A stretch of 64,000 nucleotides of DNA, taken from contig JBAXUE010000001.1 in assembly GCA_037129835.1 (NCBI GenBank), positions 26,085 to 90,084 on the forward strand. Reading direction: 5' to 3'. The DNA comes from a bacterium. GTDB taxonomy: Bacteria > Patescibacteriota > CPR2 > UBA1875 > CAIMLA01. The notes below the pieces were generated by a model. It did no database searches and was not told the origin of the DNA. It saw nothing but the letters and a program-made list of their open reading frames with translations. A program made the translations under genes and the position numbers. Below, piece by piece: positions 25,786 to 44,383 of the stretch. Numbering within the stretch: the first letter of the stretch is position 1; the number at the start of each line of letters is the position of its first letter.

Positions 25786-26427
25786 TTATACAAGCCCTTG
25801 ATTATCGGTAATAATACCCGATACATTCCTCATATTTTGTATTAATGCGAGATCTTCTTTGGTTTTAACATCCCAAATAATTATTTCTTTATCAAATATA
25901 GAAAATAGTAGAGATAATTTATTTAATAAACTATATTTAGGTACAAACAACTCGAAAAAAGGCAGATATAGTAGATTTTTGATAAATCTCTCAGATAACA
26001 ATAAACCTACTTTGATAGAGGGGAATTCCTTATTAATCTTCTTTAATGATTTTGGATAGAAAGAAGAAATAATATATCCTTCGTTTTTAATATATTTTTG
26101 AGTTAAATTAATGACTTCAGCTTCGTATCCAACCTCTTTTAGCTCAATATCTAACTTTATTTTATGAGCTACGAGCTTAAGAGTATCTTCAAGTGTTGGT
26201 ATGTCTGGGTATAGTTTCTGTAATTCGTTTAGCGTTAAATCGCATAGCTTAGCATTCTCTAATTTTTCATCGTGGAAAACTACTAGAGTGCTATCTTTGA
26301 GCCTTCTTACGTCAAGTTCTATTCCATAAAAGCCAGACTTTATCGCCGTTTCAAAGGCAGCGAGGGAATTTTCGGCTTCTGTTTCATGAGCACCCCGATG
26401 TGCATATTTGTTCATTTGTTTTTCCAA
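25786..26427 (-). CDS. glycerophosphodiester phosphodiesterase (GDPD) family
   Basis: YAHRGAHETEAENSL...ELDVRRLKD...VFHD motifs. Confidence 0.75.
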   Translation of the reverse strand: MEKQMNKYAHRGAHETEAENSLAAFETAIKSGFYGIELDVRRLKDSTLVVFHDEKLENAKLCDLTLNELQKLYPDIPTLEDTLKLVAHKIKLDIELKEVGYEAEVINLTQKYIKNEGYIISSFYPKSLKKINKEFPSIKVGLLLSERFIKNLLYLPFFELFVPKYSLLNKLSLLFSIFDKEIIIWDVKTKEDLALIQNMRNVSGIITDNQGLV

Positions 26428-27176
26428 GAAGTCTCAAAGAAAGCCTTGATTGCAAAGAATACCAAAGTGTCGTCGATGGTAAAGCCATAAGGCTCTTTTT
26501 TGTTGTATTTGATAAAGGTAACATTGTCGTCGTAAATGAATATATCCATATTCCGTGGCATCCCCGGCATATCAACATATTTCTTTTTCCATAGTAGCTT
26601 TGCAAGCACTTTTGGGTCGTGTTTCGTGTCTGTATTGATAATCTCTCTTATCTCGATGTTTTTCGCGATTCTCTCAGGCCGAAATTTTCTCTCTAACCAT
26701 GCCTCGAGGTAAGTGTTTTTGCCTTGCTCTGAAAGGATTAACAGTAGTTCACTGGGATGTTTTTTAAGCATGTCTGTATATAGCTTTTGGACTCCTTCTA
26801 TACCGTAAAGAACGTGTATCCCAGGCCGATCCTTGGCTAGGCTGTAGAGGCTTTTTAGTTCTGGCATGGCATCGTTTAGGTCCTCTCGGTAGGTTTCTAA
26901 AAGTCTTATGTTGTCGGTACATAGCTGAGTGAGTATCTCCGGGTCTTCAGGATTATAGCGAATCTTGTTGTGCCTTGCATCTTTCTTTACGACACCTTTC
27001 TTCTCTAGGTTAGCAAGTATGATGTAAGCATTTTGTCGAGAAACTTTCATTCTCTCGGCTATTTCTGGTGGAGTTAGTTCGCCATTTTCTAGAAGGAGCC
27101 GATAGCACTCAGCCTCGCTTTCGGCTAATCCAGCCATTTCAAAGATATCTTTTTTCATAAAAGTAGCATAGCACAT
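26412..27176 (-). CDS. winged-helix transcriptional regulator (TrmB/MarR-like HTH)
   Basis: N-terminal LAESEAECYRLLLENGELTPPEIAERMKVSRQNAYIILANLEKKGVV. Confidence 0.55.
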   Translation of the reverse strand: MCYATFMKKDIFEMAGLAESEAECYRLLLENGELTPPEIAERMKVSRQNAYIILANLEKKGVVKKDARHNKIRYNPEDPEILTQLCTDNIRLLETYREDLNDAMPELKSLYSLAKDRPGIHVLYGIEGVQKLYTDMLKKHPSELLLILSEQGKNTYLEAWLERKFRPERIAKNIEIREIINTDTKHDPKVLAKLLWKKKYVDMPGMPRNMDIFIYDDNVTFIKYNKKEPYGFTIDDTLVFFAIKAFFETSWKNK

Positions 27177-27258: not shown

Positions 27259-27286
27259 TTGACATAGAGCCAAAAGGGAGTATAAT
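27259..27286 (+). promoter_or_regulatory. near-consensus sigma70 promoter (TTGACA-16-TATAAT) reading into the GC-rich island
   Basis: Seen directly. Followed by imperfect palindromes and a GGGCGG/CCGCCC hairpin before the first island gene. Confidence 0.5.
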
Positions 27287-27462
27287 ACATCACTGTAATA
27301 TCTGTCATAGGCAAATGTTACATACCTTGACAATAGAATAATCAAATAGGTGGTACCTACTGCCGACGGGTCGAACGAATTCATCGATCCATCGGTGGTA
27401 GGTAAGGGGCCTACACTAAAACAGAAGGGCGGGGGACCGCCCAGACAACGAAGGGAGTGGCA

Positions 27463-27837
27463 ATGAAAACCACTCTGTACGTAATCGCCGCGTTCGTCGC
27501 GGTGACAGTTCTGATAGTCGTCCTCATGATGTGGACGACCGGCTTGGAGCTCTTTGGGCTCCAGCTGGGAAAGCACGTGACCAACGCGGAAACGCAGGTC
27601 ATGAGGCAGACCCAGCAGTACAGAACCACCCAGGAGACCAAGTTGGCCGACTGGATGGCGTCGTACGATGACGCCGAGAAGCAGATCGCACTCGTAAAGG
27701 ACGATCCCGAGGCTGTCGCCACTCTCCGTGCCAATCAGGCCGGAATTGTGCGTCAGATGAAGGTATTCGTTTCTAGCGGGCAGATCGCGAAGGAGAACGT
27801 GCCGACAGACGTCCAGGAGTTCCTAGCGTCCCACTAG
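27463..27837 (+). CDS. N-terminally membrane-anchored protein (island gene 1)
   Basis: SD gaagggag 5 nt before the ATG. One TM segment then a polar domain. GC about 55%. Confidence 0.45.
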   Translation: MKTTLYVIAAFVAVTVLIVVLMMWTTGLELFGLQLGKHVTNAETQVMRQTQQYRTTQETKLADWMASYDDAEKQIALVKDDPEAVATLRANQAGIVRQMKVFVSSGQIAKENVPTDVQEFLASH

Positions 27838-27856
27838 TTCCGAAGGAGGAACAAAC

Positions 27857-28459
27857 ATGAAGCGTTTCATTACGCTTGCAATCGTTGTTATGCTGGCGCT
27901 TTCGGCTCTTGCTCTCACCGGTTGTGACGAGCAGGTTGACAATTCGTCCGCCACCACCAAGGAGGCGGCGATAGTCAACTCTCAGGATTCGGTCTATGCC
28001 AAGGGGCAGCCGATTCCGAGGTTCGACTACTCGATTCCGAGAGATCTCTTCACACAGTTCTACAAGTTCCAGACTCAGGAGGGCATCAACACTTACAGTG
28101 TGGTGTCTGACATCAACGGCAACGTGTACTATGAGGGCCCCACGATGGGGTACCCTATTCCGTACAACAGCCAGTTGACCAACCCGGAGAAGACCGAGGT
28201 CCATGAGGGCAACTACAATGGCGGAAACGTCACGTTGCCCCAGAGTGAACCGAACGGTCTCTACACTTCGCCGACAACGAACGCCACAATAGTGATGTTC
28301 ATCGATCCGGCGACCGGTAAGCTGATGCCTGTCTACACTGAGCTCAATGTGACGTGCTTCCCCTTTACGGTGAAGAAAACGGCTACAACGAGCACAGTGT
28401 ACCAGAAGAGCGGGTCTCCGACCGCGCTCCTTGCCCCCAAGGGCAAGACGACCAAGTAG
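27857..28459 (+). CDS. lipoprotein (lipobox LALTGC)
   Basis: MKRFITLAIVVMLALSALALTGCDEQ. SD gaaggagg. Confidence 0.55.
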   Translation: MKRFITLAIVVMLALSALALTGCDEQVDNSSATTKEAAIVNSQDSVYAKGQPIPRFDYSIPRDLFTQFYKFQTQEGINTYSVVSDINGNVYYEGPTMGYPIPYNSQLTNPEKTEVHEGNYNGGNVTLPQSEPNGLYTSPTTNATIVMFIDPATGKLMPVYTELNVTCFPFTVKKTATTSTVYQKSGSPTALLAPKGKTTK

Positions 28460-28636
28460 TTCCCCTATAGGGTAAGACCGTAAGGTCGAACCCTACCACC
28501 ACCATGGGGCTCGGTGCATCATTTGCGCCGGGCCTCAGTTCCTTATTATGTATCTTTGTAGATAGGAGGACACCTACCTCTCCTCCTATCCGCACGGATG
28601 CGGAAAACAAAAAACGATCCCCAGAAAGGGGGCACC

Positions 28637-28780
28637 ATGTTCTGGTTTATCCTGAGCTTGGCCGCTGCAGTATTGTGCGGTTGGACTGGCTATAAGGGTA
28701 AGCTCGCGTATAATTTGTTACTCTCTGGAGCTAACTTTTTTTTCGCGGGCTACCAGCTGGCAGTATTGTTGGCTCGTTAA
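28637..28780 (+). CDS. small hydrophobic peptide (about 47 aa), cassette A
   Basis: MFWFILSLAAAVLCGW...GYQLAVLLAR. SD aaggggg. Preceded by the CCGCACGGATGCGG hairpin. Confidence 0.35.
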   Translation: MFWFILSLAAAVLCGWTGYKGKLAYNLLLSGANFFFAGYQLAVLLAR

Positions 28781-29163
28781 CTGACACCGATTGAGGCCAA
28801 AATAGCCTCAGAAACGGAGGGCCAAATTGCCCTAGTACGGGTCCTATCCGCTCGGACCAAAAAATATAGCGGGTAATGTATCCGATGCATTGAGGTGGTT
28901 TATATCGGAATCGATTTATTAAACCACTAAGGCCACCCTTGAGGTGCGTCTGCTTCGGCAGAGAGTGATACTCCCTCATCGACACAGAGATATGACTACT
29001 AACCCACAAGGTTAGTCTCTGAGAAGAAAAGTCGGGGGTGCGTTTGAGTGATGAGCTCAACCACCCCATTCCTATTATCTATTCGGATTATAGAACAACT
29101 TGTTTTATAACCCGCACGGATGCGGGAACAGACAAAAACACCAAAACCTCGGAGGGAGGTAGT

Positions 29164-29325
29164 ATGTTTAGTCTGCACATGGCTATGATCATGGTTGCTC
29201 TGACTGTTTATCAGTTCAGGAGTGCCATGAAAAGTGGTCGTACCTGGGATTGGTTCTGGGCAGTCTGGAATGCCTTTCTTGTGGGGGTTAACCTCATGTT
29301 GGGTATTTACCAGCTGACCAGGTAG
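29164..29325 (+). CDS. small hydrophobic peptide (about 53 aa), cassette B (paralog of A)
   Basis: MFSLHMAMIMVALTV...GIYQLTR. SD ggagggagg. Preceded by CCCGCACGGATGCGGG and followed by the 62-nt repeat. Confidence 0.35.
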   Translation: MFSLHMAMIMVALTVYQFRSAMKSGRTWDWFWAVWNAFLVGVNLMLGIYQLTR

Positions 29326-29338
29326 CCAAACCTGGTAC

Positions 29339-29400
29339 CCGCCTGTCACTGGGCGGTAGTGAAAGTAGTCGCTGGCTGATGTGGCTACAAAGAATACAGT
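29339..29400 (+). repeat. about 62-nt direct repeat copy 1 (CCGCC-tgtcactg-GGCGG hairpin plus conserved tail)
   Basis: About 90% identical to 29642-29703, including a perfect 27-mer atgtggctacaaagaatacagtgaaaa. Confidence 0.6.
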
Positions 29401-29441
29401 GAAAATGCAAATGTACCTTCATTCACCATTAGGAGGTGGAA

Positions 29442-29636
29442 ATGTACCAAGATAAGAACAACGAGGACATTGATATCACGGCTGAGATAATCAGATTCGT
29501 GGTCTCACTGGGACTCTCGTGGGGTCTTATCTGGGGCGTAGGGCGTATTTTCGGGATTGATTTCTCGTCAATTGCCTACGCGGTCTCGGTAGGTACCCTG
29601 GTAGGGATTACCTACAGCCGTTTACGCCGGAGATAA
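29442..29636 (+). CDS. small membrane peptide (about 64 aa)
   Basis: SD aggaggtgg. Followed immediately by repeat copy 2. Confidence 0.35.
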   Translation: MYQDKNNEDIDITAEIIRFVVSLGLSWGLIWGVGRIFGIDFSSIAYAVSVGTLVGITYSRLRRR

Positions 29637-29641
29637 TTCTC

Positions 29642-29703
29642 CCCGCCTGTCACTGGGCGGTATCGAAAGTAGTTGCTAGCTAATGTGGCTACAAAGAATA
29701 CAG
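29642..29703 (+). repeat. about 62-nt direct repeat copy 2
   Basis: See copy 1. Confidence 0.6.
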
Positions 29704-29877
29704 TGAAAAAGCACATAGCCTGACTTCCTGCTTGATTAATCTTGCAGGGAGTTGGGTTGTTCCATTCTCAATTGCGATTAGTAAGCTGAATATATCTTAT
29801 CTGATATAGACAGCTTACTGGCTGTAAAGTCAGTACCATACCGCCCCAGCGGAAAGCTATCCTCAGTAATGAGAAGA

Positions 29878-29932
29878 GTGAATAGTGAAATATGAAGGCG
29901 ACTAAAAATCGTATTCATATTTCACTATTCAC
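29878..29932. repeat. 19-bp perfect inverted repeat gtgaatagtgaaatatgaa / ttcatatttcactattcac with 17-nt spacer
   Basis: Seen directly. Exact reverse-complement arms. Confidence 0.7.
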
Positions 29933-30351
29933 AATGGGGCCCCACACTACAAGGGGAGAGGGGGGATCCTAACAGAAGGAGTCGCTAGCCAAATAGTCTA
30001 GTATCCGACTCTAGAAGTTAGGGCGCAACCAAGTGTAGTCGTCGTTAGCAGTATTGCGACGTAAAATATTCTTCTGCAAATGCCCCCGACGGGGCACAAG
30101 CGGTTTTTACACCACCGCTTAATCAAAAAGTGTAGCGTGGTACGCTACCACGATAAATACATGCTAAGCCCAGCGTTCCTGATTTGGGGGCGCTTGGCCT
30201 TTCCTTGTCACCAGCAAAGCGTTTCCATATATTGTTCGAGATTTGTCGAGAACTACAGTTCATGAATAAATAAGAAACTTTATAAGGGGATACCTTGCTG
30301 CTAACAAGCAGAAGGAAAGCAGGCCAAAATAGCCTGTGATTACGATTCACC

Positions 30352-30591
30352 ATGGAGAGGTGGTGTAGGGAGATGGAACGACTTAGGGATCAGATCTTGA
30401 TCGTGATGATAGGAGTGTATTTCCTCATTGTGATCACTCTGATCGCTAGCGCGGCCGTATTTGTAGCCCAGCTGATGCTGGGGGCAGGTATCTCGATCTT
30501 CTTGATCGTACCGGCCTGTATTTTGACCGGCCTCATGGCGACGGTAATTTTCGTCGCCCTGGTGGTCCTGGTTGATCATATCCACAGTTAG
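30352..30591 (+). CDS. small 2-TM membrane protein
   Basis: Hydrophobic, 79 aa. The long antisense ORF 30340..30951 was rejected. Confidence 0.35.
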   Translation: MERWCREMERLRDQILIVMIGVYFLIVITLIASAAVFVAQLMLGAGISIFLIVPACILTGLMATVIFVALVVLVDHIHS

Positions 30592-30636
30592 GACAGTGGT
30601 CAACCACACGATCAACCTCTGGAAGGAGGTGAACAA

Positions 30637-30819
30637 ATGCCGCTTTGGTTCCATATTGGGGGGGTCATTCTCCTCGAGTTGGCGATCATCGGTATCCCGA
30701 GCATGTTGTTTGGGATGTCGATGGCGCAGGGAAATCGCAATGAACAGATCCTCATTGGATCTCTCGTCGTGATTGGGGCGCTTCTGTCCCCGTTTGTTTT
30801 TGCCATTATGATGGCTTAG
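30637..30819 (+). CDS. small 2-TM membrane protein
   Basis: SD aaggaggtg 5 nt upstream. 60 aa. Confidence 0.4.
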   Translation: MPLWFHIGGVILLELAIIGIPSMLFGMSMAQGNRNEQILIGSLVVIGALLSPFVFAIMMA

Positions 30820-31245
30820 GCGAACGCGCCCTGAGGGCTGGTAACTCCCAGCCATTGGCAACAAAGGAGAGGCATGGACAATAGTCCTAGTTCTCTCAGA
30901 GTGCCAGCGAAACAACGCTGGAATCGTGAGGTGTGCACTCATGAGAAACAAATAATTATTGAGGGCCCAAGTACCGTTGTGAAACGGGATGCGGGCCTTT
31001 TCGCTTATTAGAAGTATAGAGTATTTTGGATAGTATTGTTTTGAAGATCAAATTTAATGAAACCCGATACCTACAACGTAGTTATGGTTCAACTTGTTGA
31101 AGAAATTCAAAATAGAACAGGCTAAAGTTGATACCTCGCCAGCGTTATCACAAGTTTTTTTGTGCTTGAATACATTGACAAATAAGTATAAATACGTTAA
31201 AATAAATAATTGTTTTGGGTATAAAAATCTGGATATTCTCTAGAT

Positions 31246-31965
31246 TTGTGTTCCCAATACAGGGAACAAGTATGCCTCGGAAGGAGGCTGATAGTTGTGT
31301 TTGGTGACACAAACTTGGTAGTCGACGGAACTCTTGTACTGGTAGTCATCTTTAGCTTGGTCGCCATAGCTTTTTCACACCGACGTAGTTATCTTTTGAA
31401 GGCAGAAGTTACCAGGTTGGCAACGGAGGTCTTGCGGATAGGGGCAGACAGAGACAATCATCAAGAGCTGTCTTTGATCGATCCACTAACCGAGGTGGCA
31501 AACAGAAGAGCGATTGGCCTGTATTTGCAGTATGACATGGAGCGCATGTCACGCTATCCTGGGGAATATTCGCTCATGTTTGTAGATATTGATCGCTTCA
31601 AAGCAGTCAATGATACTCGTGGGCATGCTCTCGGGGATGAGATCCTTCTGGCAGTCGCCAAGTCTCTCGAGCTCACCTTTCGCGAAAGTGATACGGTGGG
31701 GCGTTACGGCGGCGATGAATTTGTTGTATTGCTGCCAAATGCAGATCTGTTCGCTTCTAAGGCAAGAGCTGAAGACGCACTAAAAGCAGTTCGCGACATC
31801 GGCGAGGTTTATGACCTCGATATATCCCTGTCTATAGGCATAGTGACTGTGATAGGTGGTCAAGAGATTACTCTCAAAGCACTGTTAGACGCTGCAGACA
31901 AGGGCCTATATTGTGCCAAGAACAAAGGAGGCAACTGCTGGTCGAGAGGATTTGTAGAACTCTAA
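31246..31965 (+). CDS. GGDEF-domain diguanylate cyclase with N-terminal TM segment
   Basis: RYGGDEFVVLL, DPLTEVANRRA, DIDRFKAVND. The likely true start is a GTG/TTG near 31294 after SD ggaagg. Confidence 0.8.
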   Translation: MCSQYREQVCLGRRLIVVFGDTNLVVDGTLVLVVIFSLVAIAFSHRRSYLLKAEVTRLATEVLRIGADRDNHQELSLIDPLTEVANRRAIGLYLQYDMERMSRYPGEYSLMFVDIDRFKAVNDTRGHALGDEILLAVAKSLELTFRESDTVGRYGGDEFVVLLPNADLFASKARAEDALKAVRDIGEVYDLDISLSIGIVTVIGGQEITLKALLDAADKGLYCAKNKGGNCWSRGFVEL

Positions 31966-43705: not shown

Positions 43706-43984
43706 TCTTGACCTGGCGGTAACAATTTATTATAATAATCGCATGTTAGCTATTTTTACAACATTTATCCTCGTCCTCGTACTAGTTCTAGCTATTATCG
43801 GTAGCTATAATGAGGTTGTGTGTGAAGAAGTTAAAATAGATGAATAGATAAAATATAAAATTTCACAAATATAAAGCCTCACTATTATAAAGTGAGGCTT
43901 TTTGCAACGTCCTGGAGAGGCCAAACCCTCTCCAGGACGACCAAAATTCGGCAGAATGCCGAGCACCTATAGAGGGGAGAGAGC

Positions 43985-44383
43985 ATGCTAGGGGATATCC
44001 ATATTGCAGTTCGTTCCACCGCGACACAAAAACAGGTCGAGAAAGTTGTCCAGTCTGTAATCGGAAGTTCTATTCCGTTCTCGTTGCTTATACGAGATCA
44101 GATACTGAGTATTAACCTTCCGACTATAGACCAAACATCGCAAAATGATCTCAGGGCCAAGCTTCAATCGTTTCGCCGTCCAATGTACGAGACAATCGTT
44201 CCTGTGAGAGGGATACCGAGCGCTCGGATTATTATGGAAGGCGTTATCGACGAGGCTCCTATCGAGATGGAGAAGCAAGGTGATACCCTTTGGCTCGGGT
44301 GTGACGATCGTCACATTTTGGGCAGGGTTGTCGATGAGTTTTGCTCTCAGACTGGTCTTTACGGTCATAATCCACCGAACTAG
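43985..44383 (+). CDS. hypothetical protein (locally GC-richer)
   Basis: 132 aa. The antisense 354-aa ORF 43988..45052 overlaps yebC and was rejected. Confidence 0.35.
   Translation: MLGDIHIAVRSTATQKQVEKVVQSVIGSSIPFSLLIRDQILSINLPTIDQTSQNDLRAKLQSFRRPMYETIVPVRGIPSARIIMEGVIDEAPIEMEKQGDTLWLGCDDRHILGRVVDEFCSQTGLYGHNPPN

Follow-up and report, generated by a model that had tools for sequence, protein, structure and literature searches.

An unclassified, hairpin-rich non-coding spacer between two small membrane-protein genes of a rare phage-derived island

The 64-kb stretch of DNA analyzed here (the window) contains a phage-derived island whose source is an uncultivated lake bacterium. The island occupies approximately 27300–31000, has a G+C content of 45–49% compared with ~39% for the host DNA, and is flanked by a TrmB-type regulator gene (26412–27176, minus strand) and a GGDEF gene (31246–31965, plus strand). 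All island genes are on the plus strand, and two modules can be distinguished. Module 1 (27259–28588) starts with a perfect sigma-70 promoter (TTGACA-16-TATAAT, 27259–27286), followed by genes for a 124-aa transmembrane/coiled-coil protein and a 200-aa lipoprotein and by a 3′ region that is itself structured and has a terminator-like hairpin near its end (28505–28537). The lipoprotein matches phrog_24725 (E 1e-18); Vibrio and Clostridium phages also have it behind a gene of ~110–117 aa, and the lipoprotein alone is also present in a Synechococcus phage and in one metagenomic prophage. A PDB sequence search with the two module 1 proteins returned nothing useful.

Module 2 (28589–31005, plus strand) combines small ORFs of 47, 53, 64, 72, and 60 aa, all five of them membrane proteins, with long structured non-coding stretches, and it ends in a terminator-like hairpin with a T-run at ~30963–31003. 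Two of its non-coding gaps are unusually long: ~715 nt at 29637–30351 and 383 nt between ORF47 (28637–28780) and ORF53 (29164–29325), the latter being the subject of this work. Both flanking ORFs encode predicted two-helix small membrane proteins, and each has its own Shine-Dalgarno (SD) sequence. ORF47 matches phrog_37267 (E 3e-4), and neither ORF has a toxin-family or PADLOC match. The conserved core of the gap, 28789–29127, is a genuine non-coding spacer, unusually rich in stem-loops, between these two tiny membrane-protein genes.

The core begins, 11 nt past the ORF47 stop codon, with the hairpin UUGAGGC-CAAAAUA-GCCUCAG (28791–28811), which includes the perfect DNA stem TGAGGC-caaaata-GCCTCA at 28792–28810. 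The next hairpin, AGGGC-CAAAUU-GCCCU (28818–28833), overlaps an SD-like GGAGGG and, 5 nt further on, a UUG-CCC-UAG mini-ORF (28816–28835; both read from the sequence). Two mutually exclusive hairpins follow within 28840–28872, GGUCC-N9-GGACC (28840–28858) and CCGCU-N15-AGCGG (28848–28872), and then an 8-bp hairpin, GUGGUUUA...UAAACCAC, in which AUCG-GAAU-CGAU forms an inner stem (28895–28927). A UCUGC-UUCG-GCAGA tetraloop hairpin at 28949–28962 is present in the centroid fold. The composite hairpin at 28985–29021 is formed by CAGAG...CUCUG around ACUAACC-CACAA-GGUUAGU (28998–29016), and it is followed by an irregular hairpin, GGGGGUGCGUUUGAG-UGAUG-(A)GCUCAACCACCCC (29034–29067), and by two AU-rich hairpins, UCUAU-UCGGAUU-AUAGA (29078–29094) and the 10-bp UUAUAGAACA-ACU-UGUUUUAUAA (29088–29110). 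The core closes with what we call the leader hairpin, CCCGC-ACGGAU-GCGGG, after which comes an A-rich tract (29111–29126). A second copy stands at 28590–28603, so that one copy precedes ORF47 and one precedes ORF53; two copies in the window compare with 0.09 expected. Six of these stems had been listed in a preliminary description made from the sequence, and all six were found where it had placed them, although the loop of the 8-bp stem (DNA: GTGGTTTA-N17-TAAACCAC) is 17 nt long and not 16 nt as had been noted.

Downstream of the core, the ORF53 SD sequence sits inside a local hairpin, ACCUC-GGAGG-GAGGU (29146–29160), which forms with a pair probability of 0.85–1.0 whichever 5′ end is chosen for the RNA; the SD sequence of ORF47 is likewise located in a local hairpin. 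Further along module 2, a 75-nt repeat that opens with the hairpin CCCGCC-UGUCACUG-GGCGG is located past the end of both ORF53 and ORF64, after the stop codon.

The excess of hairpins was quantified by counting perfectly paired stems of at least 5 bp with loops of 3–17 nt. There are 12 of these in 28790–29110, compared with a mean of 3.8 (SD 1.9, maximum 11) in dinucleotide-preserving shuffles, none of 1000 of which reached 12, and the total stem length is 67 bp compared with 20 ± 10 bp. The perfect-hairpin count is a crude measure: counts of at least 11 also occur in 26 of ~595 windows of the 64-kb sequence, mostly in AT-rich host DNA. Folded as plus-strand RNA, 28781–29164 has a minimum free energy (MFE) of −130.7 kcal/mol. 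Its z score is −5.2 on the plus strand and −3.2 on the minus strand with 300 shuffles, or −6.15 and −2.73 with the 100 shuffles of the folding tool itself, and the core on its own scores −4.6 and −3.2. The better RNA fold is thus on the strand of all the neighboring genes. For comparison, 384-nt windows outside the island average −0.54 ± 1.5, and only the tRNA genes and a group of clustered terminator hairpins near 43.8 kb score comparably low there. When the core was folded as single-stranded DNA (ssDNA) with DNA parameters, the two strands scored alike (z −5.1 and −4.9), so the hairpins are also inverted repeats at the DNA level.

Within the 27.3–31.0 kb island, the core is not exceptional. 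In sliding 150-nt windows, plus-strand z is typically −2 to −6 across the island; inside the core it reaches only −0.2 to −4.9, whereas 28400–28650 is more structured (about −6 to −6.5) and so is 29700–30000 (down to −7.8). The preliminary description had seen far more structure here than in typical intergenic DNA, which is borne out against shuffles and host background but not against the rest of the island, which is equally or more structured.

Known RNA families were sought with the 4227 models of Rfam 15, at the gathering threshold and at E ≤ 10. Over the whole window only three tRNAs were found. The covariance-model check proposed for the stretch gave no family match even at E ≤ 10, where 28400–29500 returned only three chance-level matches of 15–17 bits against thresholds of 57–70 bits; 29300–31100 returned only miRNA-model matches to plain hairpins. 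The core is a member of no Rfam family. Motifs resembling RNase P RNA (AAAGUC.., GGCCAAAUAG) could be seen by eye, but their order is wrong and Rfam gave no match. A CsrB/RsmZ-type sponge for CsrA was considered because the loop of the leader hairpin resembles the consensus CANGGANG, but GGA is not enriched (8 occurrences compared with 9.5 ± 2.1 expected), and the GGA of the leader-hairpin loop is lost in one of the relatives described below (L011). CGGA occurs six times in the core compared with 2.0 expected, with P 0.008 before correction for 256 tetramers and no significance after it.

The predicted long-range helices across the core are not robust. One of these pairs ~28936–28945 with the ORF53 SD region (~29146–29159) and could in principle have sequestered it, but the MFE structure contains it only for an RNA that stops at 29164–29170, and it is gone once the ORF53 start is included; long-range sequestration of the ORF53 SD was therefore rejected.

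Signals for transcription were searched for on both strands. No terminator-like site was detected on the plus strand within 28790–29110; the nearest are the hairpin at 28505–28537 and the SD hairpin at 29146–29160. The core is not an intrinsic (Rho-independent) terminator, as it has no G+C-rich hairpin with a U-tract on the plus strand. Apart from the terminator-like hairpin at 28505–28537, the plus strand of 27530–29146 has no promoter- or terminator-like site, and a scan restricted to the sigma-70 consensus found no sigma-70-like promoter on either strand of 27530–29464. On these grounds the core is not demonstrably an independent small RNA gene, its own promoter and 3′ end not being found by the consensus scan. 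On the minus strand, no promoter consensus was found in 28600–29400; there is a perfect TATAAT at 29092–29087, lacking a −35 element or TG, and a terminator-like hairpin with a T-run at 29160–29146.

The exact island, 100% identical throughout, is present in several lake metagenome assemblies, and when ORF64, ORF60, and the regulator were looked up as exact sequences, only contigs of the identical strain came back. Samples that contain the element include ERZ27299960, ERZ27300165, ERZ27300155, SRR7053572, and SRR7053528, as well as JGI 3300021601, 3300021074, and 3300020157. Divergent copies of module 2 were reached only through ORF53 homologs and are two in number: L012, a 1.8-kb JGI contig that covers the whole core, and L011, a 6.1-kb ENA contig that runs from window position 28948 onward into host genes and covers the core in part. 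The search for the lipoprotein family gave 49 matches, which led to L006, a 75%-identical relative with module 1 only in which homology ends at 28587, and to prophage contexts that lack the RNA region. Phage and plasmid collections gave no BLASTN match. Scans with 18–22-mers of the core found the L012 contig alone among metagenome contigs, nothing in GTDB genomes, and among viral contigs only a chance 18-mer match (L025) with dissimilar flanks. The leader hairpin and the 75-nt repeat were not found in viral contigs, an empty island site beside the TrmB-like regulator was not found in GTDB genomes, and a concatenated small-ORF query had no match. Public data thus hold three near-identical variants of the core: the window, L012, and the partial L011.

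The relatives settle the coding status of the core. It has no plus-strand ORF, with stops in all plus-strand frames. A 112-aa ORF on the minus strand (28731–29069) has no PHROG match and is shifted out of frame by a 1-nt insertion (+G) in L012 and carries two 1-nt insertions in L011; it was rejected as a gene because its frame is not kept in the relatives. The view that some 320 nt here lack a credible ORF was therefore upheld. The flanking ORFs, on the other hand, are by their substitution patterns under purifying selection and real plus-strand genes. Against L012, ORF47 has a dS of 1.84 and a dN/dS of 0.14, which points to a real coding sequence and a deeply divergent allele; ORF53 has a dS of 0.41 and a dN/dS of 0.46 against both L012 and L011.

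The core is 97.6–98.9% identical to L012 and 97% identical to L011 (96–99% overall), against 66% for ORF47 and 80% for ORF53. It is also the best conserved of the non-coding segments shared with L012 (98% compared with 88–92% for the others). High identity of this kind might be taken as a sign of constraint, but the rest of the island argues against doing so. The window and L011 are 92–100% identical over nearly the whole island, except in ORF53 and the 72-aa ORF, whereas their host flanks are only 83% identical; dS is 0.02 for ORF64 and 0.10 for ORF60, and the island backbone has diverged by ~2–10%. Because this backbone is conserved equally well, the conservation of the core is no proof of constraint, and recency together with mosaicism explains it. 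In L011 and L012 the cassettes of module 2 are swapped: a truncated small ORF and a gene for a Csx3/Crn3-type ring nuclease are present in L012, and a replaced ORF in L011. Between these two contigs ORF53 is 99.4% identical, yet the core differs by 4% and the leader by 19%. Given the near-identical backbone, the high dS of the flanking ORFs, and the ORF53 shared by L011 and L012 despite their different cores, the element is a young mosaic in which old, divergent small-ORF alleles have been exchanged by recombination across a near-identical backbone that includes the core. More generally, non-coding conservation beside divergent genes can stem from mosaic recombination in a young element and is, alone, no evidence for a constrained RNA.

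The differences among the three variants were therefore examined individually rather than as overall identity. The core has 11 of these, 10 of which are compatible with the plus-strand fold. Seven fall at mostly unpaired or loop positions, including an added G and a U>A change in L012 within 28840–28872, both at unpaired positions, and an extra C in L011 in or beside the loop of the composite hairpin at 28985–29021. Three others alter one side of a pair and preserve the pairing: G-U to G-C at 28928 (U>C in L012, in the pair flanking the 8-bp hairpin), C-G to U-G at 28933, and U-A to U-G at 29060 (A>G in L011). The changes at 28933 and 29060 give a G-U wobble on the plus strand and a mismatch on the minus strand, where the latter would be C·A. 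The sole stem-breaking change is U>C at 29091 in L012, in a 10-bp stem. Seven of the eight core substitutions are compatible with the fold compared with 4.7 of eight expected (P ~0.045), a post hoc test that uses an MFE structure from the same sequence. Within the core there are no double changes among the three variants, which are 96–99% identical. The module 1 3′ region (28457–28592) offers greater divergence; in comparison with L006, seven of its 23 predicted pairs show double compensatory changes, which argues that the hairpin structure of the island has been selected.

Further compensatory change was found in a family of hairpins to which the first hairpin of the core belongs. The CAAAAUA loop is fixed, and the stems differ between paralogs: GAGGC/GCCUC at 28791, CAGGC/GCCUG at 30319–30337, CAGAC/GUCUG at position 951 of L012, and CCCGC/GCGGG at position 1360 of L012. 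The window hairpin at 30319 and the L012 hairpin at 951 are orthologous and differ by a compensatory G-C to A-U change. CAAAAUA-loop hairpins are confined to the plus strand of the island sequences, where they begin 6–11 nt past stop codons or finish 25–35 nt ahead of start codons, and outside the core they precede variable protein cassettes, namely the 72-aa membrane protein and, in L012, Csx3. The arrangement of hairpin, AACGGA, and SD at 28816–28835 is similar to that found 5′ of the Csx3 gene in L012. Every hairpin class is in a fixed register with stop or start codons, which suggests a function at the level of mRNA. Taken together, these data show that selection maintains stem-loops in this island and that their positions are tied to translation signals, and they lend indirect support to a plus-strand RNA structure.

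The hairpin-rich core of this rare phage-derived island is a real, unclassified spacer, probably a structured spacer RNA of the island's gene cluster rather than a new stand-alone RNA gene. The reading that we tentatively prefer is that of a long structured intercistronic spacer in a plus-strand polycistronic mRNA, in which a chain of local hairpins acts as cap, leader, and stabilizer or processing punctuation, and which doubles as a linker at the DNA level. Since the flanking genes are on the same strand, have their own SD sequences, and are separated by no internal promoter or terminator consensus, the core would most likely be transcribed within a polycistronic message. We infer that it is transcribed, that the plus-strand RNA is the active form, and that its role lies in stabilization or processing. 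The mRNA would fold as a chain of mostly independent local stem-loops and not as one globular RNA. The first, CAAAAUA hairpin would mark a cassette boundary, either capping the 3′ end of the cistron before it or serving as a 5′ element for the one after; the last (CCGC-ACGGAU-GCGG with its A-rich tract) would be a recurring leader element of the small ORFs; and the hairpins between may punctuate the mRNA by blocking exonucleases or by offering endonucleases a processing site. As DNA, the core may be a conserved linker in the backbone, with divergent alleles of the ORFs on either side exchanged across it. A length of 340 nt is long for punctuation alone and counts against the spacer reading. 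Also counted against it were the stem-breaking change at 29091, the altered loop of the leader hairpin in L011, and the similarity of the two ssDNA strands.

Several features of the core would also fit a stand-alone non-coding RNA of ~300 nt, carried as a cassette payload and acting in trans, perhaps in regulation or anti-defense on behalf of the mobile element. The position of the core, from the CAAAAUA hairpin to the next leader hairpin, is like that of a cassette, its plus-strand fold is strong, and among the non-coding segments it is the one best conserved in L012. The other cassettes of the locus are hypervariable small membrane proteins or the Csx3-type ring nuclease. Csx3 is synonymous with Crn3 (PMC7371418), and one account of ring nucleases describes them as encoded by viruses and plasmids too (PMC13148439); with a gene of this type in the L012 copy, an anti-defense cargo is plausible. 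We nevertheless consider a stand-alone RNA unlikely, because no promoter or terminator consensus bounds the core, it has no Rfam family and no homolog past three near-identical copies, its global long-range helices are not robust, and the local 150-nt z scores are merely −0.2 to −4.9. It is a doubtful proposition indeed, below the general one, that the core represents a new and very rare class of ~300-nt structured RNA carried as cassette cargo of a phage-derived element and bounded by protein-recognized CAAAAUA-loop hairpins; such a class, if true, would constitute an RNA-based regulatory or anti-defense factor. A discrete structured RNA is a possible but not an established reading of the core, and nothing marks it as one RNA gene. 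The preliminary description had proposed a candidate structured RNA; the non-coding status and the stem-loop excess that it noted hold, and the fold is better on the plus strand, whereas a discrete RNA gene and an Rfam family do not follow.

It is also rather improbable, though not to the same degree as a new RNA class, that the core is a functionless remnant, a former cassette that no longer has an ORF and whose leftover UTR- or terminator-type hairpins have been kept only through the youth of the element. An SD-like GGAGGG and a two-codon UUG-CCC-UAG stub directly past the first hairpin could be the vestige of such a cassette, cassettes have been gained, lost, and truncated among the variants (the truncated ORF of L012 and the replaced ORF of L011), and with a backbone divergence of ~2–10% near-identity needs no selection. 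A decayed paralog or Csx3 pseudogene was rejected, however, since tblastn found no trace of either a paralogous ORF or Csx3. There are no reading-frame remnants on the plus strand, the hairpin excess is far over that of the shuffles, and substitutions tend to avoid stems.

Single-stranded DNA hairpins serve as rolling-circle single-strand origins, in the intergenic regions of filamentous phages, and as integron attC sites. A comparable DNA-level element, be it a single-strand origin, a packaging signal, or a recombination site of the parent mobile element, would account for the z scores of about −5 on both ssDNA strands and for the conserved hairpin-bearing segments that flank variable cassettes. 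This explanation is very unlikely: no replication initiator, integrase, or recombinase was seen in the island, and its two credible proteins above 100 aa (124 and 200 aa) have no recombinase- or replication-type Pfam domain; only one strand has conserved loop sequences; two of the three paired-site substitutions keep pairing solely as a plus-strand G-U wobble; and the fixed register of the hairpin classes with stop and start codons points to mRNA. In integron attC arrays, as here, hairpin-forming conserved segments flank variable, promoter-less small-ORF cassettes. attC sites are imperfect palindromes of 57–141 nt with R''-L''/L'-R' architecture, whereas the island hairpins are 15–35 nt long and in register with translation signals; as there is no integron integrase in the island, an attC/cassette array was rejected.

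The least probable explanation is a type I toxin-antitoxin-like locus, with the small hydrophobic ORFs as toxins on SD-sequestering mRNAs and a minus-strand antisense RNA encoded in the spacer over the 3′ end of ORF47, the 5′ end of ORF53, or both; tandem small membrane ORFs in a phage-derived island, SD sequences within local hairpins, the perfect minus-strand TATAAT, and a minus-strand terminator-like hairpin at which an RNA complementary to the ORF53 start could terminate would suit it, but there is no minus-strand promoter consensus in 28600–29400 and the TATAAT lacks a −35 element or TG, the minus strand folds worse than the plus strand, and the predicted two-helix ORFs match no known toxin family or PADLOC entry. 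Two type I loci of the Bacillus subtilis prophage SPbeta illustrate the comparison: SR6, located between yonT and yoyJ, and bsrG/SR4, a further prophage-borne locus (PMC5848175). The island shares with these loci tandem small hydrophobic ORFs, a polycistronic arrangement, phage-derived DNA, and an SD sequence in a leader hairpin, and it differs in having no antisense promoter that could be found, two-helix ORFs by prediction with no toxin-family match, and a spacer much longer than known antitoxin overlaps.

As a structured spacer, the core would work most like the intercistronic stabilizer or processing hairpins of phage and bacterial operons, by analogy with the RNase III sites between T7 early genes, the REP element in malE-malF, and the puf operon. 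The core hairpins are likewise on the same strand as the genes, past stop codons, before the next ribosome-binding site, and without a U-tract, and hairpins of the core region recur as small families within one element. The differences are that there are about ten hairpins over 340 nt here and not one site, and that the sequence of the core is not known to resemble that of a described site. Stem-loops of this kind, provided that they are functional, would illustrate a compact modularity of mobile elements, in which conserved RNA linkers punctuate and probably stabilize the message while cassettes are swapped.

The large structured RNAs GOLLD, ROOL, HEARO/omega RNA, and raiA resemble the core in comprising several hundred structured non-coding nucleotides on mobile DNA of an environmental bacterium. 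The core, by contrast, matches none of the 4227 Rfam models, and no IscB, TnpB, or reverse transcriptase is present in the island. If the core turned out to act as a stand-alone RNA, the phage accessory loci of a poorly known bacterial lineage would gain a type of RNA cargo.

A further parallel concerns the CAAAAUA hairpins. The lambda-type boxB element of nut sites has a 5-bp stem and an A-rich loop and is bound by an antiterminator protein. The CAAAAUA family also combines short G+C stems with a conserved A-rich loop, although this loop is 7 nt long and of other sequence, and no boxA or N-like protein was identified. Because the CAAAAUA stems covary while the loop is fixed, the family carries a candidate signature of a loop-specific binding partner.

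The small membrane-protein ORFs of the second island module at 28637-28780, 29164-29325 and 30352-30591 diverge far more between island copies than does the surrounding non-coding DNA. Synonymous divergence (dS) between copies reached 1.84 for ORF47 and 0.41 for ORF53, and the 72/79-aa ORF at 30352-30591 is wholly replaced in L011, the 6.1-kb variant contig. ORF64 and ORF60, by contrast, are near-identical between copies. The comparison indicates a conserved backbone across which alleles or cassettes have been swapped.

One hairpin family is positioned at the cassette boundaries and confined to the + strand. Its CAAAAUA loop is constant and its stems of 5-7 bp covary, with members at 28791-28811 and 30319-30337 in the window and at 951-969 and 1360-1378 in L012, the 1.8-kb variant contig. 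This hairpin looks like a candidate site bound by a loop-specific factor. In L012, a hairpin of this type precedes a gene for a stand-alone, 96-aa Csx3 (1405-1695; Pfam E 1e-28, PADLOC 3e-30), a Crn3-type cA4 ring nuclease; Csx3 is the protein also named Crn3 (PMC7371418). The L012 Csx3 may be cargo against type-III CRISPR. A search within the window found no Csx3 remnant.

The same module holds a second non-coding stretch of approximately 715 nt (29637-30351), longer than the hairpin-dense spacer between ORF47 and ORF53 and exceeding it in structure: 150-nt fold z-scores fell to minima of -7.8 on the + strand and -6.8 on the - strand, and the stretch includes a 24-bp near-perfect hairpin (29878-29932) and a 17-bp hairpin (29780-29819). 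An Rfam search of this stretch gave nothing beyond chance miRNA-model matches. A 75-nt direct repeat, 91% identical between its copies at 29338-29412 and 29642-29716, opens with the hairpin CCCGCC-UGUCACUG-GGCGG; the copies sit 6-12 nt downstream of the ORF53 and ORF64 stop codons, and L011 and L012 also hold copies, located at mosaic junctions. Elsewhere in the window, a strong fold signal at 43777-44160 (z -7.1 on +, -4.3 on -) comes from a run of ordinary terminator-type hairpins behind a small ORF (43877-43910, 43909-43940 and 43949-43965), and this segment matched no Rfam family.

Within the spacer between ORF47 and ORF53, the first hairpin is followed immediately 3' by an SD-like GGAGGG, a 5-nt gap and the two-codon mini-ORF UUG-CCC-UAG (28816-28835), which together may represent either the relic of a start site or a start-stop element. 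The tetramer CGGA occurs six times in 28781-29164, where 2.0 occurrences would be expected (P 0.008, with no correction for 256 tetramers), mostly as YCGGA and inside or adjoining hairpin loops; total GGA is not enriched over the same interval.

Most large host proteins in the window had no NCBIfam match, the exceptions being ComEC, a chlor_Arch_YYY-domain protein and a subtilisin-like protease. The representative genomes of GTDB include no close relative. The host belongs to a little-characterised lineage from anoxic lake metagenomes.

At the left island edge, a sigma-70 promoter of perfect consensus (TTGACA-16-TATAAT, 12/12) lies at 27259-27286 and points inward. The module-1 lipoprotein gene retains three hairpins in its 3' region (28457-28592), with compensatory changes relative to positions 1049-1176 of L006, a 75%-identical relative; 7 of the 23 pairs are changed on both sides. 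One of the three is terminator-like (28505-28537), and another, GAUAGGAGGA/UCCUCCUAUC, consists of an SD-like sequence paired to an anti-SD-like one. The unpaired sequence CCACCACCA is invariant between the two copies.
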